A DNA stretch of 64,000 bases from an uncultured Gammaproteobacteria bacterium (GTDB taxonomy: Bacteria; Patescibacteriota; Patescibacteriia; SG8-24; DYFX01). The stretch covers positions 7,852-71,851 of the forward strand of contig CAZHHN010000002.1 of the NCBI GenBank assembly GCA_964532415.1, in the 5' to 3' direction. The notes under the pieces are model-generated. The model saw nothing but the letters and a program-made list of their open reading frames with translations, was not told the origin of the DNA and did not search any database. The position numbers and the translations under genes were made by a program. Positions 4,460 to 53,089 of this stretch are shown piece by piece (positions within the stretch are counted from its first letter, which is position 1; each line of letters starts with the position of its first letter).

Positions 4460-5532
4460 AATCACCGTGGCGCCTGATGTCTAAACCCTTCATGCTGACT
4501 TTGGCCCTGACCGTGCTGTGCGCTCCCAGCCTTGTTCAGGCACAGTCGTACGGGAATTGGCACCCTCGGCCGGCCCCAACGGGACCGCCGGAGATTGTTT
4601 TCCCGGTGGACGGTCCGGCCACCTATGCCGATGACTTCGGCGCTCCCCGTTCGGGCGGACGCATGCATGAGGGCATCGACATCCTGTCGCCGAAGATGAC
4701 CCGCATTCTGGCGGCCAAGGGAGGCGAAGTGGTGTTCGCGCCCATGACGGAGCCAAGCTACGGCTACATGCTGTCGATCGCCGGCGACGACGGATACACC
4801 TATAATTACATCCACATCAACAACGACACGCCCGGCACCGACGACGGAGCCGGCGGTCCCCAGAATGCCTACGCTCCCGGCATCCGTGACGGCGCGCGCG
4901 TCACCCAGGGACAGCTCATTGCCTGGGTCGGCGATTCCGGCGATGCCGAATCGACCGCCTCGCATCTGCACTTCGAGATCCGGCTGCCGGACGACACGCC
5001 CATCGACGCCTATCCGTATCTCAAAGCGTCGCAGGGGGTATATACCTTCGACCCGTCCGCGGCACTCTCCGCCAGCCCAACCATCGCCCAGGATAAGAAC
5101 GTCATCGCCGACCCCGCTTCGGGCTGCCCAGCCGGCAGGCTCGTCAAGCTCGCCAACGACGGCGACAAGAGCACGCATTTCGACGAAGCCGTCTATTACT
5201 GCGGGGGCGACGGCAAACGGTATGTATTTCCCAACAGCAGGGTCTACGCGAGCTGGTATACGGATTTCTCCGGCGTCCAGGTCATCGACGCGCAGGCCCT
5301 GGCCGCACTCAGGATCGGCGGCAACGTCACCTATCGTCCCGGCGCGAAGCTCGTGAAAATCACGACCGATCCGAAAGTCTATGCCGTCGACCTGCACGGG
5401 ACGCTGCGCTGGGTCTCGACTTCGGCCCTGGCCGCCAAGCTCTATGGCGCGAACTGGGCGAAAAACGTCGATGACCTTCCCGACGCCTTCTTCGCCGATT
5501 ACCGGATCGGCCCGCCGATCACTGCCGCCTGA
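4456..5532 (+). CDS. Secreted M23 (LytM-type) peptidase with C-terminal domain of unknown function
   Basis: AGAAGGAGAA SD then ATG 4456 (ATGA overlap with preceding stop). Signal peptide MKSPWRLMSKPFMLTLALTVLCAPSLVQA. M23 motifs HEGIDI and GDSGDAESTASHLHFEI. Confidence 0.8.
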   Translation: MKSPWRLMSKPFMLTLALTVLCAPSLVQAQSYGNWHPRPAPTGPPEIVFPVDGPATYADDFGAPRSGGRMHEGIDILSPKMTRILAAKGGEVVFAPMTEPSYGYMLSIAGDDGYTYNYIHINNDTPGTDDGAGGPQNAYAPGIRDGARVTQGQLIAWVGDSGDAESTASHLHFEIRLPDDTPIDAYPYLKASQGVYTFDPSAALSASPTIAQDKNVIADPASGCPAGRLVKLANDGDKSTHFDEAVYYCGGDGKRYVFPNSRVYASWYTDFSGVQVIDAQALAALRIGGNVTYRPGAKLVKITTDPKVYAVDLHGTLRWVSTSALAAKLYGANWAKNVDDLPDAFFADYRIGPPITAA

Positions 5533-5549
5533 GACCGAGCCGCGCTGCT

Positions 5550-6515
5550 TTACTTTCTCAAATACCGCCGCATCGAGAGGGCCGTCGCCGCAAGCGACAG
5601 GAAAGTGACGGCCGCGAATTGATAGCTGAAAATCTGGAGCCCGTGGTCGCGGAAATAACCGGCCACGCCGATATCGGCGCCGAAAAACGCGCGGGCGGCC
5701 GGATCGACCAAACCGAGCGTCGGCAGTACGATCGCCGCCACGACGCCGACCGCCAGCAGATTGAACAGGAACGTCTCGATCAGGAACGGCATGCGCACGA
5801 AATTGCTCGAGGCGCCGACCAGCCGCATGATGGCGATCTCCTCGCGATGGATGTAGATGGCCACGCGGATGGTGTTGAAGACGATCAGGAGCGCGATGAC
5901 GGCGAAGACGAGGCTGAGGGAGAGCGCCGCCCGCTGCACCCGGGCGGTGACGGAGGTCAGCCGGTCGATCAGCAGGCGGTGGTCTTCGACGGTTTTGTCC
6001 GCCACCAGCCCTTTGACGGCCGGGCTGTCGAGCACTTCCAGGATCGGCCCGTAGCCCGACGCGTCTTTCGCCTTGATGACCAGGACGGCGCCGAGCGGAT
6101 TCTCCCCGACTTCCTGCAGCGCCGCCAGAATCTGCGGCTCATCGGCGTGCGTCTTCCGGAAACGGTCGAGCGCCTGGCTGCGCGAGACGAATTCGACGTC
6201 GCGGACTTCCGGCAGCGAAGTCAGGTTGCCGCGCACGCCGAGGATGCGCTCGTCGGAGACGTCCGGGCCGAAATAGACCGAGACGTCGACGCGGTCTTCG
6301 ACCGTCCGGATGGCCGCGTCGGTGAAAAAATTGACGATGACGAGCAGGTTCAGGGAAAAATACGTGAGCGAAAGGATCGAGACCGTCATGAGCGACAGGC
6401 CGAGATTCCTCCAAAAATCGGTGAAGGCGAATTTGATGACGCGGCCGGCGGGAACGAACATGGCTTCAGATGAGATATTTGCCTTCCTCATGATCGGCGA
6501 CGATCTCGCCGGCAT
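5550..6515 (-). CDS. ftsX: Cell division permease FtsX (start uncertain, 6461-6515)
   Basis: Four TM helices, large periplasmic loop. Directly downstream of ftsE. Candidate starts MRKANI (6491) or MFVPAG (6461). Confidence 0.8.
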   Translation of the reverse strand: MPARSSPIMRKANISSEAMFVPAGRVIKFAFTDFWRNLGLSLMTVSILSLTYFSLNLLVIVNFFTDAAIRTVEDRVDVSVYFGPDVSDERILGVRGNLTSLPEVRDVEFVSRSQALDRFRKTHADEPQILAALQEVGENPLGAVLVIKAKDASGYGPILEVLDSPAVKGLVADKTVEDHRLLIDRLTSVTARVQRAALSLSLVFAVIALLIVFNTIRVAIYIHREEIAIMRLVGASSNFVRMPFLIETFLFNLLAVGVVAAIVLPTLGLVDPAARAFFGADIGVAGYFRDHGLQIFSYQFAAVTFLSLAATALSMRRYLRK

Positions 6516-7146
6516 GGATCGTCAGCACGCGCCGGCGGAGCGCGTTCACGATCTCGCGGTTGTGCGTGACCATCACGATGGTCGTGCCGAATTCGTTGAT
6601 CTTCCGGAAGATGTCGACGATCTCGCGGGTATGGATTGAATCGAGGTTGCCGGTCGGCTCGTCGGCCACGATGATCTTGGGCCGATGCACCAGCGAGCGC
6701 GCGATCACCACGCGCTGCTGTTCGCCGCCCGAGAGCTGCCATGGATAGCGCCCTTCCTTGCCGGAGAGATTGACGATGCGCAGCACGTGCGGAATGATCT
6801 CGCGGATGCGCCCGCCCGGCACCCCGGCGACTTCGAGCGCGAACGCCACGTTTTCGTAGACCGTCTTGCGGGGCAGCAGCTTGAAATCCTGGAAGACCAC
6901 GCCGATCTGGCGGCGTAGGCCCGGCACGTCCCGGTCGCGGATGCGGCCAATCTCCCAGCCGCCGATCTGGAGCGATCCGCCCGTCGGCCGCTCCTCGGCG
7001 ATCAGCAGCTTGACCAGCGTCGATTTGCCGGTGCCGCTCTGGCCGACGATCGACACGAACTCCCCCGGACGGATGTGCAGGTTGATGTTCTTGACCCCGA
7101 CGATGCCGGGGCTATACATCTTGCTGATGTTTCTGAGACGGATCAT
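6466..7146 (-). CDS. ftsE: Cell division ABC ATPase FtsE
   Basis: MIRLRNISKMY..GQSGTGKST Walker A, LSGGEQQR signature, Walker B IIVADEPTGNLD. Confidence 0.9.
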   Translation of the reverse strand: MIRLRNISKMYSPGIVGVKNINLHIRPGEFVSIVGQSGTGKSTLVKLLIAEERPTGGSLQIGGWEIGRIRDRDVPGLRRQIGVVFQDFKLLPRKTVYENVAFALEVAGVPGGRIREIIPHVLRIVNLSGKEGRYPWQLSGGEQQRVVIARSLVHRPKIIVADEPTGNLDSIHTREIVDIFRKINEFGTTIVMVTHNREIVNALRRRVLTIHAGEIVADHEEGKYLI

Positions 7147-7195
7147 GCCACCGCAGTATACCAGAAAATCCGGCCCGCGTGATCATCGCGAATGC

Positions 7196-7225
7196 AAAAA
7201 GACCCGACGGATGTCGGGTCTTTTT
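7196..7225. terminator. Bidirectional hairpin terminator between ftsE upstream region and tRNA-Thr
   Basis: AAAAA-GACCCGAC-GGAT-GTCGGGTC-TTTTT perfect 8-bp GC-rich stem with A and T tracts. Confidence 0.7.
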
Positions 7226-7300
7226 GGAGCCACCTCGGGGAATCGAACCCCGGACCTTTGCTTTACGAAAGCACTGCTCTACCGGCTGAGCTAAGGTGGC
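7225..7300 (-). tRNA. tRNA-Thr (anticodon CGU), CCA encoded
   Basis: Reverse complement GCCACCTTAGCTCAGCCGGTAGAGCAGTGCTTTCGTAAAGCAAAGGTCCGGGGTTCGATTCCCCGAGGTGGCTCCA folds as cloverleaf. Anticodon loop TTCGTAA. Confidence 0.85.
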
Positions 7301-7301
7301 G

Positions 7302-7375
7302 TGGAGCGGGTAACGGGAATCGAACCCGTCTCTCAACCTTGGGAAGGTCGCATACTACCGATGTACGATACCCGC
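7302..7375 (-). tRNA. tRNA-Gly (anticodon CCC), CCA encoded
   Basis: Reverse complement GCGGGTATCGTACATCGGTAGTATGCGACCTTCCCAAGGTTGAGAGACGGGTTCGATTCCCGTTACCCGCTCCA. Anticodon stem CGACC/GGTTG, loop TTCCCAA, T-arm ACGGG-TTCGATT-CCCGT. Confidence 0.8.
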
Positions 7376-7431
7376 GCGATCGGGCGCGCGTCAATGGTAG
7401 CCGATCGGCCGGATTTTTCCAAGAGCGGCGG

Positions 7432-8364
7432 CTATCGCACGAACACGATGATCGAGGCCGACTTTTTCTGGCTTTCGAGATAATCGTCAAGCTGGATCGG
7501 GCGGACGAGGATCTCCAGCAGGTGGACCTTGGCGACCTGGCCGTTCGCTTCCTGCCGGTCGACGACGCGCAGCACGTGATACCCGAACGCGCTCTTGATC
7601 ACGCCGCTGGTTTCGCCCGGCTTGAGGGCGAAGGCGGCCGTCTCGACTTCCGGAGGAAGCAGCCCGCGGCCGATCAGGCCCCGATCGCCGCCGGACGGCG
7701 CGATGGCGCGGTCTTCGCTGTACGAGGCCGCCACGTCTTTAAAAGATTTTCCCGCCCGGAGTTCCGCCAAAGCCGCTTCGGCCTTCTTCCGGTTCTCGGC
7801 ATTGAGCGCCTCGTCGGATTGGACGGCGCGCTCCAGCTGCTGGCGCACAAGAAAATCGTGGAGAATGCCTGTTTTGAACTGCGACGGACGGAGGTCGTAC
7901 ATGCGCCGAAGGGTATCCGACGCGCGCGCTTCGGCCTTGGCCTTGCCGGTGGGAGCGGCGAGTGCGGACTGGTCAAGGATAGTGGCGTCGTAGGCCCGGT
8001 CGGCGTCTTCACTGGTCACGACGATGCCGTAGCGGGCGGCCAGCGATTCGGCCAGCCGATCCTTGATCAGCTGGTCGAGCACGCGCCGCTTCAGCTCCGC
8101 TTCATCCGGAAAAACCGAACCGCTCACGGCCGTCGCCTGCTGATCGCGATAAAACCGCTCAAGCGCCTGGAGATGATCCTGGAAATCGGCATAGCGGATC
8201 ACCTTGCCGTTCACGATGGCGGCCGGGTACGGCAGCACTTTGGTCACGACCTCGGCCACTCCGCCATGCCACTGATATCGGTACAGGCAGAAGCCGAAAA
8301 CCGTCGTGGCGATCAAAAAAACGGCGGCGGCGATCGCCCACACCCGGCGGGGCGACAACGGCAT
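7432..8364 (-). CDS. SurA/PrsA-like parvulin-type peptidyl-prolyl isomerase, membrane anchored
   Basis: N-terminal TM (MPLSPRRVWAIAAAVFLIATTVF). C-terminal PpiC/parvulin motif GVIKSAFGYHVLRVVDR. Alternative start 8403. Confidence 0.65.
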   Translation of the reverse strand: MPLSPRRVWAIAAAVFLIATTVFGFCLYRYQWHGGVAEVVTKVLPYPAAIVNGKVIRYADFQDHLQALERFYRDQQATAVSGSVFPDEAELKRRVLDQLIKDRLAESLAARYGIVVTSEDADRAYDATILDQSALAAPTGKAKAEARASDTLRRMYDLRPSQFKTGILHDFLVRQQLERAVQSDEALNAENRKKAEAALAELRAGKSFKDVAASYSEDRAIAPSGGDRGLIGRGLLPPEVETAAFALKPGETSGVIKSAFGYHVLRVVDRQEANGQVAKVHLLEILVRPIQLDDYLESQKKSASIIVFVR

Positions 8365-8377
8365 TTTGAGAACGGCT

Positions 8378-8809
8378 TCAGGCGCGTTTTCGGGCAGCGG
8401 CATAGGCTTCGTAGGCTTTGGGATCGACGAACAGTGTCCACCATTTCCGGGCATTTGACCAGCCGCCGGCTTCAGCCGCACCCGGCATTCCGGCCGTTCC
8501 ACCGGCTTCGGCCGCACCGGTCGGCTTTTTCAGAACGACGACCTGTTCGCCATCCCTGCGAAGCCCGAGCTTCAGACGCGCCTCGCGTTCGAGATATTCT
8601 CCGTTCTGGAGCGAAGCTTCGATCGAAGACAGTTGGAAGTTCCGCACCTGCAAACGATCGGATTCTTGTTTCAGGGTACGGATCTCGGCGTCAATCTGCC
8701 GCGAGCGCAGGACCTCGCGGGCGAAAGCGATGCCCGAAAGGACACCCGCGCAGAGCAGCCCGGCGACAAGCCAGCCGAAACGACTTTTGGATGGCGACGC
8801 CCGTTTCAT
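8378..8809 (-). CDS. FtsB/DivIC-like septum formation initiator (coiled-coil, single TM)
   Basis: MKRASPSKSRFGWLVAGLLCAGVLSGIAFA TM then coiled coil (EIRTLKQESDRLQVRNFQL). ATGA overlap with murE stop at 8806-8809. Confidence 0.55.
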   Translation of the reverse strand: MKRASPSKSRFGWLVAGLLCAGVLSGIAFAREVLRSRQIDAEIRTLKQESDRLQVRNFQLSSIEASLQNGEYLEREARLKLGLRRDGEQVVVLKKPTGAAEAGGTAGMPGAAEAGGWSNARKWWTLFVDPKAYEAYAAARKRA

Positions 8810-10167
8810 GGATGGACTTCGTCGCGGCTGCCGAGTTTCTCCCGCAGGCATTCGCGCGCCGCCTGCCGCTCGTCCCAGGGACGGAGCTTCCCGCCGCGCC
8901 CGACGATCGCCTGCTCGGCACCCTTGCCGGTCAGCAGTACGACATCTCCAGACCTCGCCAGATCGACGGCCTTCATGATCGCCTCGCGGCGGTCGGCGAT
9001 CCTGAACAAGGTCTCCCCTTCCTTCTTCCCGGCCTCGCGCGCGCCGGCGGCAACCTGATCGATGATCGCCTGCGGGTCGTCATCGTAGGGATCTTCATTC
9101 GTGACGATCACCACGTCGGCCGTTCCGCCAGCCAGGCGTCCGAGGATGGGGCGGCGGGCGACGTCGCGGCCTCCGCCGGCCGAACCGAGCACATGCAGGA
9201 TGCGCCGATGCGGCAGGCGTTCGATGGCGGAGTAGAGCTGGCGGAGCGATTCCGGTTCCGGCGCGTAATCGACGATGACGGTGAAATCCTGGCCTTCGTC
9301 GATTCTCTCGAAACGGCCGGGCACGCCGGTGACCTTGGCGAGCGCCCGCGCCATGACCTCGAGCGCCACGCCCTGCGACAATCCGACCGAAACGGCCGCC
9401 AGCGCGTTCAGCACATTATACCGGCCCGGCATTTTCACATCGAAACGCGTATCGCGCACCGTGAAGACCGAGGTATCGGGGTGCAATCCGACGTTCACGC
9501 CTTTCACGATCGCCATCGGCCAGGCGGCCAGCCCGGCCGGCTGCGCCGCACCATCGGCCAGGAAGCCGTATTTCTTGTCCGCTGGCGGTTCAAGAAACTC
9601 TTTCGCGTATTCCGACTCGAGATTCGCGATCGCGACTTTCTTGACGTCGCCGCGCATCGGCAGCGATTTTCGCCTGTGCCGCATCAATTGATGGAAAAGC
9701 TTGAGTTTGGCGCGCTTATAGTTTTCGAAACCATCGTGCGCCTCGATATGCTCCGGCGTGAGATTGGTGAAAACCACCACGTCGTACTCGATGCCGAAAT
9801 GACGGAACTGATCGAGACCCTGCGAAGACGTTTCGATGACGGCGTAGCGGCAGCCGGCTTCGGCCATGCGATGCAGCATCTTCTGCAGAAAGAAGCGTCC
9901 CGGCATCGTCATCTTCATGGCGTTGACGATTTCCTCGCCGGCAACGCGGAAATTGACGGTCGACGTCAGACCGACCTTCTCCCCCGCCTCTTCCAAGATG
10001 CGGGCGATCATGTTCACGACCGTCGTTTTCCCGTTGGTGCCGGTCACTCCGATCACGATCATCCGCCGCGACGGCCAGGCGTACCAGGCGGCCGCAAGAT
10101 AGGCCAAGGCGAAATGGTAGGCCTGGAGCAGTGGCTTGGGAATGAAGGCTCTGAGCCGGGAAAGCAT
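8806..10167 (-). CDS. murE: UDP-N-acetylmuramoyl-L-alanyl-D-glutamate--2,6-diaminopimelate ligase (MurE-type Mur ligase)
   Basis: GVTGTNGKTT P-loop, VIETSSQGL, C-terminal VVIVTNEDPYDDDPQAI (MurE DNPR-like). Start chosen at MLSRLRAFIP (10167). Confidence 0.8.
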   Translation of the reverse strand: MLSRLRAFIPKPLLQAYHFALAYLAAAWYAWPSRRMIVIGVTGTNGKTTVVNMIARILEEAGEKVGLTSTVNFRVAGEEIVNAMKMTMPGRFFLQKMLHRMAEAGCRYAVIETSSQGLDQFRHFGIEYDVVVFTNLTPEHIEAHDGFENYKRAKLKLFHQLMRHRRKSLPMRGDVKKVAIANLESEYAKEFLEPPADKKYGFLADGAAQPAGLAAWPMAIVKGVNVGLHPDTSVFTVRDTRFDVKMPGRYNVLNALAAVSVGLSQGVALEVMARALAKVTGVPGRFERIDEGQDFTVIVDYAPEPESLRQLYSAIERLPHRRILHVLGSAGGGRDVARRPILGRLAGGTADVVIVTNEDPYDDDPQAIIDQVAAGAREAGKKEGETLFRIADRREAIMKAVDLARSGDVVLLTGKGAEQAIVGRGGKLRPWDERQAARECLREKLGSRDEVHP

Positions 10168-10385
10168 GGGATCAGGATAGCATATGCGCGAAAAGGCATC
10201 TGGCTGTGTCTCCGGAGGCTTGCACATTTCTCCTTGACGCAGAGATTAATTTCATGCTATCGAATACCCATGGTTACGCCGCCCAACCCGGGCAAGCGGC
10301 CAGCGGCAGACAATGCGGCTGTACGCTTCTCCGGGCGGCGGCGTCCATGCCATCCCGCCTCCGTCCCGAAAGGAAACGCCTCCGC

Positions 10386-10763
10386 ATGGACGATGACACC
10401 GAATGGCGATATCCCGGCGAGATTGATGATGCCTATCGGGAAAGTATCCGCGAGCGCTTCACTTGGACAACCGTCCTGACGGCGCTGAAGATCCCGTACG
10501 AACTCAGCGGCGAACGGAGAAACCGCATCAAGCTGCTGTGCATCTTCCATGCGGAGAAGACACCTTCTCTGCTCTTCTATCCGGATGGCGGCTTCATCTG
10601 TTTCGGCTGCCAGCAGCAGGGCGACATCGCGCAATTCGTCTTCCTCTGGTTCGACAAGACCTTTCCTGCGCTGAACTGCACCGGCGTTCCGAAAAAGGCG
10701 CTCGATGATTTCTTCGCTTCGTGCGCGAAAAAGAATCCGCAACAACTTGATCTTCCGATCTGA
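10386..10763 (+). CDS. Standalone primase-type CHC2 zinc-finger protein (no TOPRIM/catalytic domain)
   Basis: CIFHAEKTPSLLFYPDGGFICFGCQQQGDIAQFV matches DnaG zf-CHC2 (CxxH-x17-CxxC). SD AAAGGAAA before ATG 10386. In-frame alternative starts at 10254 (ATG) and 10206 (GTG). Confidence 0.6.
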   Translation: MDDDTEWRYPGEIDDAYRESIRERFTWTTVLTALKIPYELSGERRNRIKLLCIFHAEKTPSLLFYPDGGFICFGCQQQGDIAQFVFLWFDKTFPALNCTGVPKKALDDFFASCAKKNPQQLDLPI

Positions 10764-10795
10764 ATGCGATCGGGTTCCATATGGGGCTCGATTTT

Positions 10796-11602
10796 TTATA
10801 AAATCTGGAAACGTTTCTGAAAAAACTCCTCCATTATGTATTTATACATCATGAAAAGAGTCGGAATTACCAAACGTTGATTGTCCAATAAGTTCGCAAA
10901 AACAAAACCGACCATAAACTCCACCTGTAGAGCATCCATTCCTGTAAAGCTGGATGGCAGCACCAATTTGGCGAAAGTCGCACCATCAACTAACGGTCCT
11001 TCTAGCATTTCTACTGGACTTTTTCCAGATTTGTGAAACGTGACGTAAGAATCGTCTTCAACTTGTGCGCCCAAACTTAAAACCTTCGCACCCGTAGCAA
11101 TCACATGTAGTGTTCTGTGCTTATCCTTGTCTGAAAGTTCTCGAAGTATGGTGAGCGGATGATAACCGATAACGCCAGCCCCCATGAACGGTTGAACTTG
11201 TAAAAAGACTTCCAAGAATTTTTTAGGGATACCAGGCAGTTTTTTCTTTACACCCTCAGAAAATTTTTCTTGATTTTCACAGATAGGAAAGTATATCTGT
11301 TTCTGCTGTAATTCAGAAAGATTTTTGAAGTCGCTATAATGGCTCACCGTCTGCCAAGCTAGGTTGTCCAAAGCTGCTCTCAAATGATGAATAGTTTCGC
11401 TCAATAACAATGGAATTTGTTTCGGGATCACAGTCCGAGAAGCCCATCTCCAAGAGATAATCTTATTCTCATGATCAGTTTCACGAATAATGTTTGTAGT
11501 ATTAAACTTGGAGCCATAAGCATGCAGAATGTCGTTTATTTCACGCATTCTGATTTCCGCTTGAGCCAAACGATCAGCGGTGTCTTGAAACAAGACTGAC
11601 AT
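10796..11602 (-). CDS. AT-rich orphan protein (268 aa), function unknown; candidate accessory/defence gene
   Basis: ORF of ~40% GC inside a ~66% GC locus. Begins 3 nt after the murD stop. No recognisable catalytic motif. Confidence 0.7.
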   Translation of the reverse strand: MSVLFQDTADRLAQAEIRMREINDILHAYGSKFNTTNIIRETDHENKIISWRWASRTVIPKQIPLLLSETIHHLRAALDNLAWQTVSHYSDFKNLSELQQKQIYFPICENQEKFSEGVKKKLPGIPKKFLEVFLQVQPFMGAGVIGYHPLTILRELSDKDKHRTLHVIATGAKVLSLGAQVEDDSYVTFHKSGKSPVEMLEGPLVDGATFAKLVLPSSFTGMDALQVEFMVGFVFANLLDNQRLVIPTLFMMYKYIMEEFFQKRFQIL

Positions 11603-11605
11603 TGT

Positions 11606-13036
11606 TCAACTCAACTTCTTTACTACATTACGGAACTGCTCCCCCCGATCGAATTCGTTGACGAACAACCCGAACGACGCGCAGCCCGGCGAGAGCAGCA
11701 CCGCCTCACCTTTTTTCGCGGCGCGCGTCGCGTGCGCCACCGCCTTATGCATTGAAGAAACGACCTCAGCCGGCCGCATGCCGGCTTTTTTCAGCGCCGC
11801 AGCCATTTTCGGCGTGGCTGTGCCTTCGAACAGAATGATTTCTTTCGCGAACCGTTTCGCCGCTTTCGCCCATGGCCCGAATTGCAGCGCCTTGTCGGCG
11901 CCGCCGGCGATCAGCACGCCTTTCTTTTTCTTAAAAATCGTCTCCATGGCGGCGACCGAGGCTTCGGGCGTGGTGGCGGCGGTATCGTTCCAATAGCCCA
12001 CGCCACGCACGTCGCGGACATGCTCAAGACGGTGCGGCACGCCTTTGAAATTCCGCAGGGATTTTTGGATCGCCGCGGGCCTGGCTCCGCGCAAAAATGC
12101 GGCTCCGCCGGCCAGAAGCGCGTTCCAAAGATTGTGTTCCCCCGGCAGCCGCACGTCCCCGGCATCGAACAGGACCGTCTCGATGCCCTGCGCGCGAACG
12201 ACCGCCTTCCGCCTGCGGAAAAAAACGGCGTTCTGATCGCCCGGCACCGGCTTCATCGACGCCCAGAAGCGTTCGCCGCGGACGCGCGCGCCCATTTTTT
12301 TCGTCCAGGGATTCCCGAACGGAACGATGGCGATGTCGGTCGGCAGCTGCCAGGCATAGATCAGTTCCTTGGCGGCAGCGTAGTCGGCCATGCCGTGATA
12401 GCGGTTGAGATGATCCGGCAGGACGTTCGTGAGCACGGCGATCGACGGGCTTCTTTCCACGCTCTTCAGGCTTTCGAGCTGCCACGAAGAGAGCTCGAGC
12501 GCGACGGGCACCGCTCTTTTCGCCGGTATGGCCTCTTCGAACGGCGACGTGCGGATATTGCCGGCCACGAAGGCGCGGCCGAAGGCCGCCTGAAGCATCG
12601 CGCCGAGCAGGGATGTTACGGTCGTCTTGCCTTTGGTGCCGGAGATACCGACGATCGGCTGGGGGCAAAGCCGGAAGAACAGCGAAACATCGGACTCGAC
12701 CGGCACGCCGGCACGCCGGGCGACCGCCAGAAACCGGGAATCGCGCGGTACGGCGGGATTTTGGATCACCATGTCGGCCGTCCGGAAATCGGCGTCACGG
12801 TGCCGGCCGAGAACATAGCGGATCGGGTGCGCGTTCGTGCCGAGGGTTTTTCTCAACCGTTCCAGCTCCGAAATCGACGGCGCCAGCGCATGGCGATCCT
12901 TCAGGTCGGTGACGGTCAGACGCGCGCCCTGGCGCAGCAGCCATTTGGCCACGCCCAAGCCGCCACGGTTGAGGCCGAGACCCATGATCGTGACTTTACG
13001 ACCGAGGAATCCTTTTCCGAAGACATCAGAGGTCAT
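11606..13036 (-). CDS. murD: UDP-N-acetylmuramoylalanine--D-glutamate ligase
   Basis: N-terminal KVTIMGLGLNRGGLGVAKWLLRQGARLTVTD Rossmann, GISGTKGKTT P-loop. ATGA overlap with upstream GT2 stop. Last ~12 codons AT-rich. Confidence 0.85.
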   Translation of the reverse strand: MTSDVFGKGFLGRKVTIMGLGLNRGGLGVAKWLLRQGARLTVTDLKDRHALAPSISELERLRKTLGTNAHPIRYVLGRHRDADFRTADMVIQNPAVPRDSRFLAVARRAGVPVESDVSLFFRLCPQPIVGISGTKGKTTVTSLLGAMLQAAFGRAFVAGNIRTSPFEEAIPAKRAVPVALELSSWQLESLKSVERSPSIAVLTNVLPDHLNRYHGMADYAAAKELIYAWQLPTDIAIVPFGNPWTKKMGARVRGERFWASMKPVPGDQNAVFFRRRKAVVRAQGIETVLFDAGDVRLPGEHNLWNALLAGGAAFLRGARPAAIQKSLRNFKGVPHRLEHVRDVRGVGYWNDTAATTPEASVAAMETIFKKKKGVLIAGGADKALQFGPWAKAAKRFAKEIILFEGTATPKMAAALKKAGMRPAEVVSSMHKAVAHATRAAKKGEAVLLSPGCASFGLFVNEFDRGEQFRNVVKKLS

Positions 13037-13725
13037 ACGCGTTGCCGAAATTGGTCGGCGGAGAGGCAGGTCGCCACCAACGCCGCGCTGATCTGCCAGA
13101 TCATCTGAAGATAGGCCGCGAGGCCGCGGAAAAAACCGACCTTCTGCATCTTGCGCCGTTGCGTGACGCCTTCCGTCAACACCCGACCGTACGGCAGCCG
13201 GTTGACGCGGCAGAAACAACCGAGCGCGATTTCAACGCGGAAGCCTTCGAGAAAACGCGGCGGCACGCCTTCGAAGATTTCCCGCCTGAGCGCCCGCTCG
13301 CCGGCAATGGAAGGCAGCCGCGCGATCAGCCGCGTCACGATCGGACCCCAGTCGCGGAGTCCCGTGCACATCGCCAGACGGCCGTCGAGTACCGGCGCAG
13401 TCAGACGTTCGATGTGTGCCGGCGTGAGTCCGATCAGATCGGCGTCGCAGAATAGCAGCACGTCATGCGAAGCCGCGGCGACGCCATGCCTGAGCGCGCC
13501 GCCTTTCCCTTGGTTGCGTTCCAGGCGCAGCACGCGGTCGGCGCCGGCACGGCGCGCCGCGTCCGCCGTCCGGTCGCGCGAACCGTCATCCACCACGATG
13601 ACTTCGCCGACCGAAGCCGCGGATTTCAGGGCGCGCACGACCTCCGCAACCGTCCGCTCCTCGTTGCAGGCCGGAACGATCGCCGAAGCGCGGCGCGCTT
13701 CATCGGCCGCGGAGCGAAAGTTCAT
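13033..13725 (-). CDS. Family 2 glycosyltransferase (DPM1-like)
   Basis: AIVPACNEE..VIVVDDGSRDRT..LLFCDADL motifs of GT-A fold GT2. Confidence 0.75.
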   Translation of the reverse strand: MNFRSAADEARRASAIVPACNEERTVAEVVRALKSAASVGEVIVVDDGSRDRTADAARRAGADRVLRLERNQGKGGALRHGVAAASHDVLLFCDADLIGLTPAHIERLTAPVLDGRLAMCTGLRDWGPIVTRLIARLPSIAGERALRREIFEGVPPRFLEGFRVEIALGCFCRVNRLPYGRVLTEGVTQRRKMQKVGFFRGLAAYLQMIWQISAALVATCLSADQFRQRV

Positions 13726-14269
13726 ACAGGATCTCCTCGGCCTTGCGCAGATGGGCGCGGGCCTGGTCGTACTTCGTCCGGAGATAGCCGGAGTAATCCA
13801 TCGCATCGAGGCCGGCGATCACCCGGTCCATCCGGGTTTTCAATTCCCTGGTTTCGGCATCCCGCCCGGCCGTCGCGAAGACGGTCATGAGGCGCACGCC
13901 TTCACCGAGCGCGTCGCACAGGCCGGCGATCTGCGTTTCTTCGTCGAATCCTTCCAGAGGCGAAACGTCGCCTTTCCAGGCGAGTTGCGCGACAAAGCGC
14001 GCCTCGGCGTACTCTTCGAGCGCGGCGCGGTAGCTGCCCTCATGCGACAGGCGCGCGTTCGCCGACGCTTTCGTGCCGATCTCCGCGAAGACATGTTCCG
14101 CTTCGGTCAGAAGCCTCTTGGCTTCGGCTTCGTCGTCGCGCAGGATCGAGAAAATTGCCCGCTTTGAGCACCCCTGCGCTCTGGCGGAAAGGGCGATGAT
14201 CTCGCGGCGGGCGAGATCGAACGCTTCCTGTTCGGTTTTCAGACGGGCGAGGAAATCTGCGGTCGGCAT
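13700..14269 (-). CDS. Translin-family protein (all-alpha)
   Basis: C-terminus LRKAEEILYELSLRGR resembles translin LKKLENVVYDLSIRG. DEETQIAGLCDALGEGVRLMT resembles translin DDIFLLGVLHEDADLKLNL. Confidence 0.45.
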   Translation of the reverse strand: MPTADFLARLKTEQEAFDLARREIIALSARAQGCSKRAIFSILRDDEAEAKRLLTEAEHVFAEIGTKASANARLSHEGSYRAALEEYAEARFVAQLAWKGDVSPLEGFDEETQIAGLCDALGEGVRLMTVFATAGRDAETRELKTRMDRVIAGLDAMDYSGYLRTKYDQARAHLRKAEEILYELSLRGR

Positions 14270-14343
14270 AGCCTTGGCAGAATAGCGGGATCGTAGCCGG
14301 AAATCAAGAACGAAAAGAAAAACAGCGGCACAGGCCGCTGCCG

Positions 14344-15915
14344 TCAGACGTGATTCCAAGTGGCCGCTTCCCCGGTCGGAAGAAAGAAACGGTCGGCCTG
14401 ATGATCGTAGTGGAGAAGCCGCACATGCACATCCGTCGTACCGTCCTCCTCCTGATACACCAGGGTTTCGACGGGCGCGAGCCGAAAGGACGTTTCGTCC
14501 CGATATTCAGCGGTGGCTTGCCTCCAGAGCAGGTGGAGGATGACGAGCGTGACCACCGGCCAACGAAACATCGCCAGCGGCGAGACCACCAGCAGCAGGA
14601 AAAGTCCCGCTGAAAGGAGGGCATAACCCGCCGTCACTGCGCAGGCTTTACGAGGCACGTGTACCCAATGATAGCCGATGTGCCGGAAGAAGGTTTCGAC
14701 CGGCGTCCAGCGGGTCCGGCAGCGCACCTCCGGCATGAAGGTTCGCACCTCCAGGCCCGCCAATCCGCTGTTGTAGTACATAACCGTCCGATCGCGGAAC
14801 GGGTATGTTTCAACCTTGCGTCCATGCGTGTGGGCGCCGACCAAGTGACGAATCCGGGGATGCGCGTCGAGAAACGCGCGAAGATGTTTCTCGTACCGAT
14901 CCGGCCCCATCGTATTCAAGACAACGATCACGGACTCCCAGAGGCGCAGCAGGCCGTCACGGAAATACTGCAGCACATCCACGCCCGCAACGATGACAAC
15001 GACCAGGCACAGCCGCAGCAGGATATGGAAGATGCTTTGCGGCTGCCGGGCGAAGCCCATCGCGTAGGTCGCGCCATGATCGGCGCGGCGGTTGATGTCC
15101 CTGAAGTAATGGCGTTTCAACCACATGCCGAGGCTGGCATGCAGGCAGGAGGCCAGACGCACGTTCAAGATCTTCACTTTCTTGCCGAACCAAGGCGTCA
15201 ACGCCGCCGGAATGGAGCGCAGCGCGATGATGAAACTGACAGCGGAAATGGACACGGCGATCGCTCGACCACGGAATCCGGCAGGCAAAAGCGAGAAGGC
15301 TGACCAACTGACGATGACCGCGACGACAAGGGCCAAAAGCCCCACGAAGATGGTCGCCCTCCGACTGAGCATGACGGTCTTCTTGAACGCCTTGGCGATC
15401 GGCGGATCGGCGTTCCAGGGATCGAAGGCGTGCCCATGCAGGTGCAAGACCGTCTCCCCGACCGGCCAACCGTCCTCGTGGAAGGTGACGCGGCCGGACG
15501 GTTCCAGCGGTGCGAGCGCCCGTTCGATAAGCTCGCGAACGCGTGGCCAGCGCATTTCCATGTCGTGATTGCCGGGGATGATCCGGCAGCTCAGTTTGGG
15601 ATAGCGCAAAAGGAATTCGCGCAGCCCGGAGAAATACCCAGGGTGCGCCCTCAGGATCGCTTCGGCCTTGGCGACCGCCGCCTCTTCGGTCGGCACGACG
15701 CCATACTCTCCGTTGAAGGGCGCGGCCAGCAAATCAAGCCAATCGCCCAGAAACACCAGATCGTATTCAACATCTGGCCCGAAGACGCCAGTATGCGTCT
15801 TGAGCATGGCGAGATAGGCACGCTCGATTTCCTGAGGAAAATCTTCAAGCCTGGCGTCACCTGCCCCGAGGTGTTTATCGCCCAGCGAAATCGCTACTCT
15901 GATCAATTTTCGCAT
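14344..15915 (-). CDS. Calcineurin-like metallophosphoesterase with C-terminal multi-TM membrane domain
   Basis: ISLGDKHLG and IIPGNHDME metallophosphatase motifs, several hydrophobic helices downstream. Start MRKLIRVAISLGD. Confidence 0.65.
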   Translation of the reverse strand: MRKLIRVAISLGDKHLGAGDARLEDFPQEIERAYLAMLKTHTGVFGPDVEYDLVFLGDWLDLLAAPFNGEYGVVPTEEAAVAKAEAILRAHPGYFSGLREFLLRYPKLSCRIIPGNHDMEMRWPRVRELIERALAPLEPSGRVTFHEDGWPVGETVLHLHGHAFDPWNADPPIAKAFKKTVMLSRRATIFVGLLALVVAVIVSWSAFSLLPAGFRGRAIAVSISAVSFIIALRSIPAALTPWFGKKVKILNVRLASCLHASLGMWLKRHYFRDINRRADHGATYAMGFARQPQSIFHILLRLCLVVVIVAGVDVLQYFRDGLLRLWESVIVVLNTMGPDRYEKHLRAFLDAHPRIRHLVGAHTHGRKVETYPFRDRTVMYYNSGLAGLEVRTFMPEVRCRTRWTPVETFFRHIGYHWVHVPRKACAVTAGYALLSAGLFLLLVVSPLAMFRWPVVTLVILHLLWRQATAEYRDETSFRLAPVETLVYQEEDGTTDVHVRLLHYDHQADRFFLPTGEAATWNHV

Positions 15916-48593: not shown

Positions 48594-50174
48594 TCAAATC
48601 AACGCTCGGCCCGTCATATCGGCCGGCTGGGGAATGCCCAGGATTTTCAAGATCGTCGGCGTGACGTCGGAGAGCATGCCGATCGGCGGACTCAGACTCA
48701 AATCGCCCGCCACCATTTCCTGCGCCTCCCCCGCCATGCCCTCGAACGGCCGGCCGATGATCAGGAGCGGCACCGGATAGGTGGAGTGTTCCTTGTCGAT
48801 CGCGCCGGTCTGGAGGTTCACGACTTCCTCGGCGTTGCCGTGATCGGCGGTGACGATGACCGTGCCCTCTTTGGCCAACGCGGCATCGACGATCCGACCG
48901 ACGCACTGGTCGACAATTTCGGCCGCCTTGACGGTCGCCTCCAGATTGCCGGTGTGCCCGACCATGTCGCCGTTGGCGAAATTGACGGCGATCAGGTCAT
49001 AGGTGCCCTTGCCCAGCTCCTGCACGACGCGATCGGCAATATGCAGCGCCGACATCTCCGGCTGCTGATCGTAGGACGAAACCCTCGGCGACGGGATGAT
49101 GACCCGGTCCTCGCCCGGGAACGGATCTTCCCTCATACCGTTCAGGAAGAAAGTGACGTGCGCGTATTTTTCCGTTTCGGCGATGTGCAGCTGCTTCATG
49201 CCGGCGTCGGAAACGACTTTGGCCAGGCAGGTCGAAACCGGTTCGGGCGGGAAGGCGACCGAAACCGGCAGGCCCTTTTCGTATTCGGTCATGGTCACGA
49301 AGAGCAGCTCGCGCATGTAGGTGCGCGAAAACCTGTCGAAGGACGGCAGCGCGAAGGCTTTGGTGAGTTCGCGGGCGCGGTCGGGGCGGAAGTTGAAGAA
49401 GATGACGGCGTCGCCGTCCTCGATCTTGGCGACCGGGCGGCCGTGCTCGGTGATGACGGTCGGGGCGAACTCCTCGTCGAAGACCCGGGCGTCATACGAT
49501 GCGCGGATGGCCGCGAGCGGATCGTCCGACGACGCGCCGGAAACGCCATCGGCCATAGCGCGGTAGGCCGCCTCGACGCGGTCCCAGCGGTTGTCGCGGT
49601 CCATCCCGTAAAAACGTCCGGAGAGCGTGGCGATCTTTCCGACGCCGTTCTTTTTCATCCGCCCGAGGACGGTGCCGACGAAATCGATGCCGGCGTTGAA
49701 GGTCGTGTCGCGGCCGTCGAGAATGGCGTGCAAAAAGAGCTGCGTGACGCCTTCGCGGGCGGCCAAGTCGAGCAGGGCCAGCAGATGGTCGAGCGAAGCG
49801 TGCACGTTGCCGATCGAGGTCAGCCCGAGCAGATGGAGCTTCGTCCCGCGTTTCCGGACGTGCCGAATGGCGTCCATGAACGCCCCGTTCCGGAAAAATT
49901 CTCCGTTCTGGATGGAACGGTTGATGCGCGGCAGGCTCTGATAATAGACTTTGCCGGCGCCGATCGTCAGGTGGCCGACTTCGGAATTGCCCATTTCGCC
50001 CCACATCAAGCCGACCTCTTCGCCGGAAGCGAGGATCGTCATGGCGGGATAGCTGGCGGCGAACTCGCGCAGCCGCGGCGTATTCGCCAGCGCCAGCGCG
50101 TTGCCCTGATCGGGCGGCGCTACGCCCCAGCCGTCGAGAATCAGGAGCACGATCGGTTTCGTCGGTGCGGGCAT
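48594..50174 (-). CDS. gpmI: 2,3-bisphosphoglycerate-independent phosphoglycerate mutase (copy 1)
   Basis: LLILDGWG, catalytic GNSEVGHLTIGAG, TADHGN. 526 aa. Confidence 0.9.
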   Translation of the reverse strand: MPAPTKPIVLLILDGWGVAPPDQGNALALANTPRLREFAASYPAMTILASGEEVGLMWGEMGNSEVGHLTIGAGKVYYQSLPRINRSIQNGEFFRNGAFMDAIRHVRKRGTKLHLLGLTSIGNVHASLDHLLALLDLAAREGVTQLFLHAILDGRDTTFNAGIDFVGTVLGRMKKNGVGKIATLSGRFYGMDRDNRWDRVEAAYRAMADGVSGASSDDPLAAIRASYDARVFDEEFAPTVITEHGRPVAKIEDGDAVIFFNFRPDRARELTKAFALPSFDRFSRTYMRELLFVTMTEYEKGLPVSVAFPPEPVSTCLAKVVSDAGMKQLHIAETEKYAHVTFFLNGMREDPFPGEDRVIIPSPRVSSYDQQPEMSALHIADRVVQELGKGTYDLIAVNFANGDMVGHTGNLEATVKAAEIVDQCVGRIVDAALAKEGTVIVTADHGNAEEVVNLQTGAIDKEHSTYPVPLLIIGRPFEGMAGEAQEMVAGDLSLSPPIGMLSDVTPTILKILGIPQPADMTGRALI

Positions 50175-50259: not shown

Positions 50260-51837
50260 TCAATCGCTGAGCAGCGAGCGGCCGGTCATTTCGACCGGCG
50301 GGCGGATGCCCATGAGATCGAGAATCGTCGGCGCCACGTCGGCCAGCACACCGCGCGGCAGCTCGCGCAGGCCTTCGAGATTTCTGCCGGCCGCCAGGAA
50401 CGGCACCGGATTGACGGAGTGCTCGGTGTCGACCGCCCCGGTCGCGACATCGATCATCTCCTCGACGTTACCGTGGTCGGCGGTGATGACAAGCGTGCCA
50501 TCCAGCGCTTGGACTTCCTTCCAGATCCGGCCGATCGCCCCATCGATCGCCTCGACCGCCCTGACGGCCGCGTCGAGATTGCCGGTGTGCGCGACCATGT
50601 CGGCATTGGCGAAATTCATGGCGACGAAATGATAGAGGCCGCGCCGCAGCTTTTTGATGACCGCGGTGGCCAGATCGGGCGTGCGCATTTCGGGGGCCAT
50701 GTCGAACCGCGGAATGCGCAGCGATTCGATCTTGAGATGCTCTTCGCCGAAATGGCGGTCGTCGTAGCCGCCGTTGAAAAAGAAGGTGATGTGCGAATAC
50801 TTTTCCGACTCGGCGGCGTAGAGCTGCTTCAATCCCTTGAGCACGGCCGGCAGCGCATTCCTGATGTCGCGGGCGGGAAAGGCCGTCAGGATGTGCGGCA
50901 GGTCGGGTCCGAAATCGGTCATCGCCACGAAGCGGATGTTGCGCGGCACGCGGCGCCGAGTGAAGGCGCCCGGCACCGACGCTTCGAAATCCGGGATCAG
51001 GAACGTTTTGGAAAACTGACGGGCGCGGTCGGAACGCAGGTTGAAGAACAAGATGGCGTCGTTGTCGGCGACCGGGCCGACCGGCACGTGGTTCTGATCG
51101 ACAATGACGGTCGGCACGATGAATTCGTCCGTTTCTCCGCGGTTGTAGGCCTGGAGCAGCGCCGCCTCGGCCGACGGCGCGGAGAGACCCTCGCCTGTCA
51201 CGATGGCGTGATAGGCCAAGTCGAGCCGCGGCCAGTTTTTGTTGCGGTCCATCGGATAGAAGCGCCCCATCAGGCTGGCGATGCGCTCGCCCGGCTTGAG
51301 GCGCGCTTCGATCTCGTGGACCTGCGCGGTGGCGGCAAAGCGCGGGCCGTCGCGGCCGTCGGTGAAGAGATGCAGCCGGACGTCCCTGACGTCCTGCCGG
51401 CGGCAGAGATCGAGCAGCCCGTAGAGATGGTCCATGCTGGCGTGCGCCGAGCGTCCGGTCGACACCAATCCCATCAAGTGCGCTTTGGTGCCGTATTTTT
51501 TGACGTGGCGCAGCGCTTCGAGAAAAGCGGTGTTCTTGAAGAACGTCCCGTCTTCGATGGCGCGGCTGATCAGCACCGATTCCTGCTCGACGACCCGGCC
51601 GGCACCGAGATTCATGTGGCCGGCTTCCGAATTGCCGGGCTGATGCTTCGGCAACCCCACGTGCTGGCCGTGCGCGAACAGCTCGGCGTGCGGATAGCGT
51701 TCCCAGAGCTCCAGAAGCGCCGGCGTCCGGGCCATCAACACCGCGTTGCCCTGCAGGCCGGCCGGCGCGGAACCGAAACCGTCGCAGATGACCAGCACCA
51801 CCGGGCGCACCTTTCCTTTAGGCGTGCGGGGAGGCAT
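50260..51837 (-). CDS. gpmI: 2,3-bisphosphoglycerate-independent phosphoglycerate mutase (divergent copy 2)
   Basis: [28 protein letters not shown]. 525 aa. Overlaps eno end by 20 nt. Confidence 0.85.
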
Positions 51838-53089
51838 GCAGTTCGTCTTCGATTTCCATCAGGCGGTTGTACTTCACGAGCCGCTCGCTGCGCGAAAGGG
51901 AACCGGTCTTGATGAATTCGGCGTTCACCGCCACCGCCAGGTCGGCGATGGTCGTGTCGGTCGTTTCTCCGGAGCGGTGCGAAATGGCGATCCGGTAGCC
52001 GTGCGCCTGGGCCAGGCGGATAGCGTCGATCGTTTCGGAGAGCGTGCCGATCTGGTTGACCTTGACGAGAATGGCATTGGCCACGCCGCGTTCGATCCCC
52101 TTGCGCAGCCGTTCGGCATCGGTCACGAACAGATCATCGCCGACCAGCGCGATCTTCGATCCGAGCGCGGCCGTCAGTTTCTTCCAGCCGTCCCAGTCGT
52201 CCTCCGCCAGGCCGTCCTCGATCGACACGAACGGCCACTTTTTGACCAAGCCCTCCCACATCCTGATCATGCCGTCGCTGTTCAAACGGCGCCGGTCGGT
52301 GCGCAGGACATATGTTTTCTTTTTGGCGTCGTAAAACTCCGAAGTGGCCGGATCCATGCCGAAGCCGACGTCGCGGCCGGGCGCGTAACCGGCCTTGCGG
52401 ACGGCTTGGGCGATAAGCGCGAAGGCCTGGGCGTTTTTTTTCAGTTTCGGAGCGAAACCGCCTTCGTCGCCGACGCCGACCGGATAGCCCTTGGCACGCA
52501 GCAGATCGTGCAGGACATGGAAGATCTCGGAACCGCAGCGCACGCGTTCGCGGAAGGTTTTCTGCTTCGGGACGATCAGGCACTCCTGAAAATCGATGCT
52601 CCAGTCGGCATGCACGCCGCCGTTCAGGACGTTCATCATCGGAAGCGGAAGTTTCCAGCCGTCGTATTCCAGCTGGAAGACGTCGCGCAGATAGCGGTAG
52701 AGCGGGAGGCGCAGCGAAACGGCGCCGGCATGCGCGGCCGCCAGCGAAACGCCCAGGATGGCGTTGGCACCGAGGCGTTCCTTGTTGCGGGTGCCATCGA
52801 GTTCTTTGAGCTTCGCATCGAGCTTGCGCTGCTGCTGGACTTCCATGCCGGCGATGGCGGGCGCGATCACCTTTTCGACGTTGGCGACGGCCCTGAGCAC
52901 GCCCATGCCGCGATAACGCCTGCGGTCGCGGTCGCGCAACTCGAGTGCTTCATGCACGCCGGTTGAAGCGCCCGAAGGCACGGCCGCCTTGGCGACCGTG
53001 CCGTCCGAAAGCGTCATCTTCACCTCGACGGTCGGATTGCCACGCGAGTCGAGGATCTCGCGTGCCGTGGTTTCGCGGATGCCGGGCAT
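51818..53089 (-). CDS. eno: Enolase
   Basis: [15 protein letters not shown]-terminus, SHRSGETTD metal-site region. 423 aa. Confidence 0.9.

Follow-up and report, generated by a model that had tools for sequence, protein, structure and literature searches.

We sought to determine what role might be played by a short gene between murE and murD in a 64-kb stretch of contig CAZHHN010000002.1 (the window, by which we mean the whole 64,000 nucleotides analyzed), where a primase-type zinc finger appears to stand on its own beside an AT-rich orphan gene. A first-pass annotation, made from the sequence letters alone, had taken the two genes together for a two-gene mobile or defense remnant. The gene in question, here called zf, encodes a 125-residue protein that combines a DnaG-type zinc-binding domain (ZBD) with a flexible tail ending in the hexapeptide QLDLPI, and the reading that we favor, at roughly even odds (about 50%), is that of a primase-type ZBD tethered to the clamp and active at replication forks, in which the clamp binding would be the part deduced from the tail. 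The features on which this reading turns are as follows.

10386..10763, plus strand: zf coding sequence, a 125-residue stand-alone primase-type ZBD protein (Pfam, PDB profile comparison, AlphaFold2 (AF2) model with Foldseek, start placed by homologs)
10539..10610, plus strand: CHC2 zinc ribbon, with ligands C52 (10539-10541), H55 (10548-10550), C72 (10599-10601) and C75 (10608-10610)
10743..10760, plus strand: QLDLPI (residues 120-125, with P118 before it), the C-terminal hexapeptide and candidate beta-clamp-binding motif
10761-10763, plus strand: zf stop codon

A stand-alone primase-type zinc-binding domain

The Pfam family Zn_ribbon_DnaG (zf-CHC2), PF01807, matches the protein at E=2.1e-8, its 34.3 bits exceeding the gathering cut-off of 24.9, and comparison of a profile of its own family with the PDB returned the ZBD of Bacillus stearothermophilus primase (1d0q, E=6e-13) and the Aquifex primase (2au3, E=3e-10). 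The AF2 model of the 125-residue protein, for which 42 homologs were used, reaches a predicted local distance difference test score (pLDDT) of 88.5 and a predicted template modeling score (pTM) of 0.82, and the sole significant Foldseek matches in the PDB were the same two structures, 1d0q (E=5e-5, 103 columns) and 2au3 (E=9e-4, root-mean-square deviation 1.9). The metal ligands C52, H55, C72 and C75, spaced as C-x2-H...C-x2-C, are invariant across an alignment of 42 sequences (A1). Every feature of PF01807 membership open to testing was found, with the zinc ligands being predicted ones, and the domain assignment is far above chance expectation. The layout comprises N-terminal helices, the CHC2 zinc ribbon, C-terminal helices and then a tail of about 12 flexible residues ending in QLDLPI.

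The remainder of a primase is missing. Pfam detects neither a TOPRIM nor a polymerase domain in the zf protein, and the NCBIfam dnaG model TIGR01391 scores 30.6 bits against its cut-off of 283.6. When a complete Patescibacteria DnaG (L022) was compared with the window in six frames, the only match was that of DnaG residues 42-99 to this very ZBD, and no TOPRIM remnant was found downstream or elsewhere in the 64 kb. The C-terminal DnaB-binding domain is absent as well, the protein ending 50 residues past the ribbon with no further match to DnaG. Three defining features of DnaG primases were thus looked for, and none of them is present. A frameshifted or otherwise broken dnaG was considered and ruled out, no TOPRIM or polymerase domain being encoded in any frame of the window. 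The first-pass annotation had described a stand-alone DnaG-type CHC2 protein devoid of catalytic domains, as opposed to the N-terminal piece of an interrupted dnaG, and on both counts the profile searches and the six-frame comparison agree with it.

The protein does, however, have relatives of its own kind. Word-indexed searches with the single protein or with the family alignment recovered almost nothing besides the query itself; an exhaustive HMMER search of 1.84 billion cluster representatives (E<=1e-3) retrieved 951 proteins, most of the best 150 being 80-220 residues long. Besides A1, a narrower alignment of 11 sequences (A2) was used for locus scans, because A1 was too diverse. The family comprises at least about 70 clusters of proteins of 85-180 residues, with the A1 consensus ...W..VL..L.....R..G....LC.FH.EKTPSL..WP.G.F.C.GC...GD...F.......F...L.....P.QL.LPF, in which the N-terminal segment with the conserved W27 is specific to the family. 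True members score at least 100 bits with the family profile over nearly its whole length, as opposed to primases and phage ZBD proteins, which match in the ribbon alone and reach no more than about 66 bits; some 30 further small proteins that are not in A1 score 78-103 bits with the N-terminus of the profile covered. We therefore place the zf protein, from its sequence, in an unnamed and uncharacterized family of small, fast-evolving proteins. Comparison of the family loci with labeled Patescibacteria loci by tblastx was uninformative as to taxonomy, and "Patescibacteria-type", as used below for contigs, is a label only.

The extent of the gene deserves comment, since the first-pass annotation had left its start ambiguous between 10206, 10254 and 10386. 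The open reading frame (ORF) spans 10206..10763 on the plus strand and contains the peptide CIFHAEKTPSLLFYPDGGFICFGCQQQGDIAQFV quoted in that annotation. Alignment with the closest homologs, P0004 (44% identity) and P0005, begins at query residue 64, and the first residues of both lie beside M61 of the query, that of P0004 being itself a Met. The segment 10206-10385 lacks the coding signature in which G+C content at third codon positions (GC3) exceeds that at second positions (GC2; 0.63 vs 0.58), and an AGGA lies about 11 nt 5′ of the ATG at 10386. Because of the homolog alignment, the missing coding signature upstream and the AGGA, the ATG at 10386, giving 125 residues, is the best of the candidate starts; the public gene call starts at ATG 10347 and gives 138 residues. 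Over 10386-10763 the G+C content (GC) is 55.0%, in line with the earlier estimate of about 55%, and identical copies of the gene occur on the contigs of four samples.

A conserved tail resembling clamp-binding motifs

Bacterial clamp-binding motifs take the forms QLxLF and QLxLxL (PMC4564189), and in Hda the segment 6-QLSLPL-11 touches the clamp cleft through Leu7, Leu9, Pro10 and Leu11 (PMC5397184). The window protein has the C-terminus ...KKNPQQLDLPI, and about 29 family clusters carry a tail of the type P-x-Q-L-x-L-P-F, in which the proline at +4 corresponds to Pro10 of the Hda QLSLPL. With the pattern Q-[LIMV]-x-[LIMF]-x-[FLIYW] or QLxLF, 27 of the 122 small hits had a match in their last 20 residues, compared with 1.0 +/- 1.0 in shuffled tails (maximum 6 in 1000), and outside the last 20 residues of those same proteins the pattern occurred only 4 times. 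While Gln is present in 29/29 tails by construction, the pattern having required it, positions that the pattern leaves free are conserved too, with Pro at -2 in 19/29 and at +4 in 18/29; Leu occupies +1 in 27/29 and +3 in 22/29. Conservation of the glutamine can also be judged independently of the pattern: Q120 is at least 90% conserved in the 11-sequence A2 and appears in the A1 consensus. A survey of Patescibacteria-type loci totaling about 1.5 Mb (3311 ORFs) turned up the strict motif at the C-terminus of 6 ORFs, of which 6/6 are family members.

In the AF2 model, residues 114-125 were assigned neither helix nor strand by DSSP, and block-mean pLDDT falls to 76 over residues 111-120 and 71 over residues 121-125, the lowest of the model. 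Judged by its sequence, QLDLPI matches the QLxLxL clamp motif, is conserved beyond chance and lies in a terminus predicted to be flexible. About 17 of the 29 motifs end within 3 residues of the C-terminus; a free carboxylate is not required, because many members continue for 3-33 residues past the motif.

A second class of tails lacks the Gln and reads F-(K/R)-K-x-F-x-I-P-L-P-W or G-I-x-S-P-L-P (P0035, P0054, P0124, P0066, P0070, P0021; L175; L189). In the syntenic pair L089/L189, one copy ends in QLDLPL and the other in GIHSPLP, and, because the pair differs in this way, the hydrophobic-Pro-aromatic core may be the constant part of the tail.

Primase ZBDs, such as those of DnaG and T7 gp4, act in trans on primase catalytic domains, hold the primer-template and bind template or primer. 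Were the tail QLDLPI to dock on the sliding clamp DnaN, the ZBD could bind single-stranded or primed template, or engage a primase catalytic domain in trans, and the whole would constitute a clamp-tethered primase-ZBD module at replication forks, serving, for example, in primer hand-off or in the modulation of priming. There is a precedent for finding clamp ligands in this manner: terminal near-consensus clamp motifs of phage Mu MuC, a small DNA-binding protein, were spotted in the sequence, and clamp binding was later proved by experiment (PMC12867686). A full-text literature search found no paper that connects clamp-binding motifs, or Patescibacteria, with proteins of the CHC2 type.

The conserved tail could, on the other hand, bind a partner other than the clamp, with its D-L-P-I/F tip imitating the tail of the single-stranded DNA-binding protein (SSB) toward SSB-interacting proteins, or contacting a helicase or primase; or else the protein could be a zinc-ribbon transcription factor or another nucleic-acid-binding factor unrelated to replication forks. 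The SSB C-terminal tip is DDDIPF, and the acidic tips in the family are reminiscent of it, several tails being acidic right before the hydrophobic-Pro-aromatic tip. The terminal position of the majority of motifs and the existence of tails with no Gln (F-x-I-P-L-P-W) speak for such a partner, and the MuC case illustrates that terminal clamp motifs or their look-alikes can serve transcription (PMC12867686). Nevertheless, conservation of Q120 without regard to the search pattern, and of Leu at +1 and +3, fits the clamp motif and not the SSB tip, and the motifs followed by further residues would not offer a free end. We regard this alternative as unlikely.

Solitary genes, a phage-like module and the murD-murE junction

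Most family members stand alone as chromosomal genes on Patescibacteria-type contigs; at least one sits in a phage-like module. In nine distinct contexts the genes are found alone amid chromosomal housekeeping genes, at the following places, to which the module containing P0015 is added.

L086: after mraY-ftsW, before rpsT
L089 and L189: between lemA-htpX and groEL-groES
L172: adjoining the ATP synthase operon
L252: before hisS
L254: after yceG
L255: adjoining smc, with rnhB and dnaE nearby
L257: divergent from a sigma-70 gene
L174: among ordinary genes
P0015 module, L261 6867-8336 and also L262: methylase, helix-turn-helix (HTH) protein, T4_Y16D-like protein, UvsX/Sak4-like recombinase, 132-residue phrog_28248 protein and, last, the ZBD protein

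No neighboring gene recurs among the family loci, and a conserved partner gene for the family was therefore rejected. L089 and L189 share the order lemA-htpX, zf, groEL, with LemA 65% and HtpX 61% identical and the zf protein only 41% identical; because the synteny is shared and the neighbors are so much more similar than the zf protein, the pair indicates vertical inheritance combined with fast evolution. The P0015 module is tightly packed and co-directional, and contains the recombinase (phrog_97, E=4e-51), an HTH repressor-like protein and members of other PHROG families; the place of P0015 in it is a hint that some family members take part in phage recombination or replication.

Two more distant ZBD proteins may be mentioned here. 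The IMG/VR contig L096 (308,895 bp), catalogued as viral, may be a very large phage or else the misfiled genome of an ultra-small cell; within 5455-9326 it encodes, side by side, a PTH2-type peptidyl-tRNA hydrolase, a small ZBD protein whose tail reads ...EQLSFPWF and which is more distant than the family proper, and a tyrosine recombinase. On L176, the other of these ZBD proteins has a QL-type tail and lies in a region rich in ORFans that also holds an endonuclease VII-like gene.

In the window itself, a GC-rich (62.7%) part of a Patescibacteria genome whose MurE is 74-79% identical to MurE of metagenome-assembled genomes labeled Patescibacteria or Minisyncoccota, two genes lie between murE and murD, namely the plus-strand ORF 10206-10763 and a minus-strand ORF of 268 codons at 10796-11602. 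The locus is composed as follows.

8806-10227, minus strand: murE, divergent from zf
10228..10385, no strand assigned: murE-zf divergent intergenic region and 5′ leader with the AGGA, from sequence and composition
10768..10803, plus strand: terminator-like hairpin of 11 pairs with a T-run, between the convergent zf gene and orphan
10796..11602, minus strand: AT-rich 268-residue orphan (GC 0.40, GC3 0.40), convergent with zf
11606-13219, minus strand: murD (public gene call, 476 residues)

The orientation given earlier, divergent from murE and facing the orphan, agrees with these coordinates. Across ten close relatives (L005-L014), the length of the murD-murE gap varies from 0 in L005 to about 4.2 kb in L014, with cargo that is unrelated from one relative to the next, such as secreted-looking proteins of 400-625 residues or a LuxR-type HTH protein; because both the size and the cargo of the gap differ among relatives, the junction is variable, and in this genome zf is an accessory gene within it.

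The orphan appears to have a different history. The AT-rich block is confined to 10765-11605, that is, to the orphan alone, while the zf gene has a GC3 of 0.70, inside the range of 0.63-0.87 of 8 neighboring genes, and a GC3>GC2 coding signature. The closest homolog of the orphan, P0003 (L258; 32% over 142 residues), adjoins an HTH_17 gene and has the motifs IHHLRAALDN.W and S.DKHR in common with the orphan; weak relatives are found among reverse-oriented "moron"-like genes of the Mycobacterium prophage prophiGD13-2 (gp34) and the Gordonia phages Samba and ZiggyZoo (gp32), and among hypothetical genes on actinobacterial plasmids. Pfam, NCBIfam and PADLOC gave no significant match for the orphan, Pfam and PADLOC were also empty for its distant relatives, and its AF2 model is poor (pLDDT 38). 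By composition and relatives, the orphan is recently acquired mobilome DNA of horizontal origin. As GC3 is 0.70 for zf and 0.40 for the orphan, and the two do not co-occur elsewhere, zf is either a native or a long-resident gene of different origin from the orphan, and not the other half of a co-inherited pair.

These data bear on the proposal that the two genes arrived as a cassette carried by a phage, plasmid or integrative element, and function or decay together. In its favor are the variable gap, with neither gene present in any close relative, the foreign composition of the orphan and its relatives in actinophages and plasmids, as well as the company kept by P0015 (the UvsX/Sak4-like recombinase and HTH repressor) and by the distant protein with a QLSFPW tail on L096 (the tyrosine recombinase). 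However, the orphan was found with no other family member, the very outcome that the first-pass annotation had named as one that would refute its view, and the two GC3 values argue for separate acquisition times. The zf locus, flanked by murE on one side and by the orphan and murD on the other, shows no mobility genes such as an integrase, no bounding repeats and no tRNA target, its direct repeats being limited to chance-like pairs of 14-16 nt inside genes. With the window protein as query, tblastn against 50,697 phage and 72,556 plasmid records came back empty, and a scan of IMG/VR with the A2 profile yielded no full family member, only primases and ribbon-only matches of 66 bits or less. Nor does a role in defense find support, since the PADLOC matches (RT_UG29 and RTasDnaG-like) cover just 40-60 residues of the ZBD as against models of 2280 and 550 positions, and the reverse-transcriptase core of the UG29 or RTasDnaG-like defense-associated proteins was not found by PADLOC in the zf protein. 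Together with the nine housekeeping contexts, this makes a common cassette improbable, and the interpretation of the pair as a mobile or defense remnant is not supported. As to the more general attribution of such proteins to mobile elements, one clear phage-like module, that of P0015 (L261/L262), stands beside the nine housekeeping contexts.

We return to the clamp-tethered reading, against which a number of observations must be set. Neither dnaN (with the E. coli DnaN as query) nor dnaG was found in the window, a conserved replication-gene neighborhood was not found across the family loci, and both zf and the orphan are absent from the murD-murE site in the ten close relatives. An apparently patchy distribution and fast evolution suit an accessory or mobile-element-derived gene better than a core replisome part, and P0015 resides in a phage-like module. 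As to the tail, the canonical Q-motif is present in only about one quarter of the small hits, the others having F-x-I-P-L-P-W-like or unrelated ends, and the last residue of the window protein is Ile, where Leu or Phe is usual. In view of its patchy occurrence, rapid evolution and phage-borne member, the family may not be a core component of the replisome but an accessory one, or one derived from phages.

Finally, the gene might be suspected of being a dead remnant, left from the N-terminal part of a dnaG or phage primase gene that has decayed, since it has a primase N-terminal domain alone and lies beside foreign DNA in a variable gap, but this is highly improbable given the four intact metal ligands and confident whole-domain fold, an N-terminal extension and C-terminal tail that are family-specific and not primase sequence, the consistent sizes within the family (85-180 residues), the GC3>GC2 signature with no TOPRIM remnant in any frame, and the terminator-like hairpin after the stop codon.

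The hairpin at 10768..10803 is only suggestive of a terminator, as the regional count of such sites does not exceed the shuffle expectation. No consensus sigma-70 promoter was found in the 5′ leader (10228..10385), and Rfam gave no match in 9800-11900. A 16-nt inverted repeat, 94% complementary, pairs 10380-10395, at the zf start codon, with 10541-10556, in the sequence for the first zinc knuckle; although the predicted minimum-free-energy RNA structure includes it, the fold z-score is only -1.57, and we do not claim it as a regulatory element.

Elsewhere in the window, tRNA-Thr(CGU) and tRNA-Gly(CCC) lie at 7225-7375 on the minus strand, between ftsE and a SurA-like gene about 3 kb from zf, and this pair carries no sign of use as an integration target. 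Downstream of murD and a family 2 (GT2) glycosyltransferase, a Translin-family protein (PF01997, from a precomputed Pfam match) is encoded at 13700-14359 on the minus strand, which is unusual for a bacterial cell-wall cluster. Two adjacent paralogs of about 525 residues (48594-50174 and 50260-51837, minus strand), with N-termini resembling cofactor-independent phosphoglycerate mutase, lie just upstream of a 423-residue ORF (51818-53089, minus strand) with an enolase-like N-terminus, both resemblances coming from a by-eye reading of the translations.

Comparison with known systems

Stand-alone zf-CHC2 proteins as such are ordinary; what is new here is the tail and the family that carries it, the combination of a ZBD with a clamp motif being one that the searched literature does not describe. 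We know of no bacterial protein that tethers a primase ZBD to the sliding clamp. It is tempting, if tentative, to view ZBD proteins with clamp-like tails as an unrecognized class of sliding-clamp clients in Patescibacteria and their phages, in which a ZBD tethered to DnaN would act in trans, by passing RNA primers to the clamp and polymerase, by tuning priming in a minimal replisome devoid of the chi/psi switch, or by enabling a phage to seize the clamp of its host at primed sites. If the motif does not bind the clamp, the finding shrinks to an ordinary orphan zf-CHC2 protein. If it does bind DnaN, the clamp "tool-belt" gains a new client, and with it comes a handle on the primase-to-polymerase switch in ultra-small Patescibacteria with reduced replisomes, or on the use of the clamp by phages.

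With the ZBD of DnaG (PF01807; 1d0q, 2au3) the zf protein shares the CHC2 ligand pattern and the fold, flanking helices included, at 26-30% identity in the Foldseek alignments. It differs from DnaG in having neither the RNA-polymerase/TOPRIM nor the helicase-binding domain, and the family has its own N-terminal segment (W27) and P-x-QLxLPF tail, which primases do not. Phage and plasmid zf-CHC2 proteins and primases (PHROGs 11992, 360, 18097 and 6444) are similar in the zinc-ribbon core (E=4e-10 to 4e-6), although these matches span only about 45 ribbon residues, and in IMG/VR they stay at or below 66 bits compared with at least 100 bits within the family.

The tail, in turn, is most readily compared with 6-QLSLPL-11 of Hda and with the QLxLF/QLxLxL motifs of Pol II, III, IV and V, which it resembles as a terminal unstructured hexapeptide of the Q-L-x-L-P-hydrophobic type, including the proline that in Hda contacts the cleft. 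In those proteins, however, the motif is borne by an AAA+ or polymerase domain, whereas in the zf protein it is attached to a primase ZBD and its binding to DnaN is a prediction from sequence. Phage Mu MuC/Mor offers the parallel of a small nucleic-acid-binding protein with a terminal peptide like a clamp motif (PMC12867686). Its DNA-binding fold is nevertheless unrelated, and MuC activates transcription, while nothing points to transcription in the case of the zf protein.

One more comparison concerns YabA of low-GC Gram-positives, described as a small zinc-binding regulator with DnaN and DnaA as its partners (PMC4705661). The two proteins are unrelated in sequence and by Pfam, and no link to DnaA is evident for the zf protein. 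YabA has an N-terminal tetramerizing coiled coil and a different zinc domain. YabA nonetheless resembles the zf protein in its small size, its zinc-binding domain and, if the tail acts as proposed, its partner DnaN, and the two may prove to be functional analogs.

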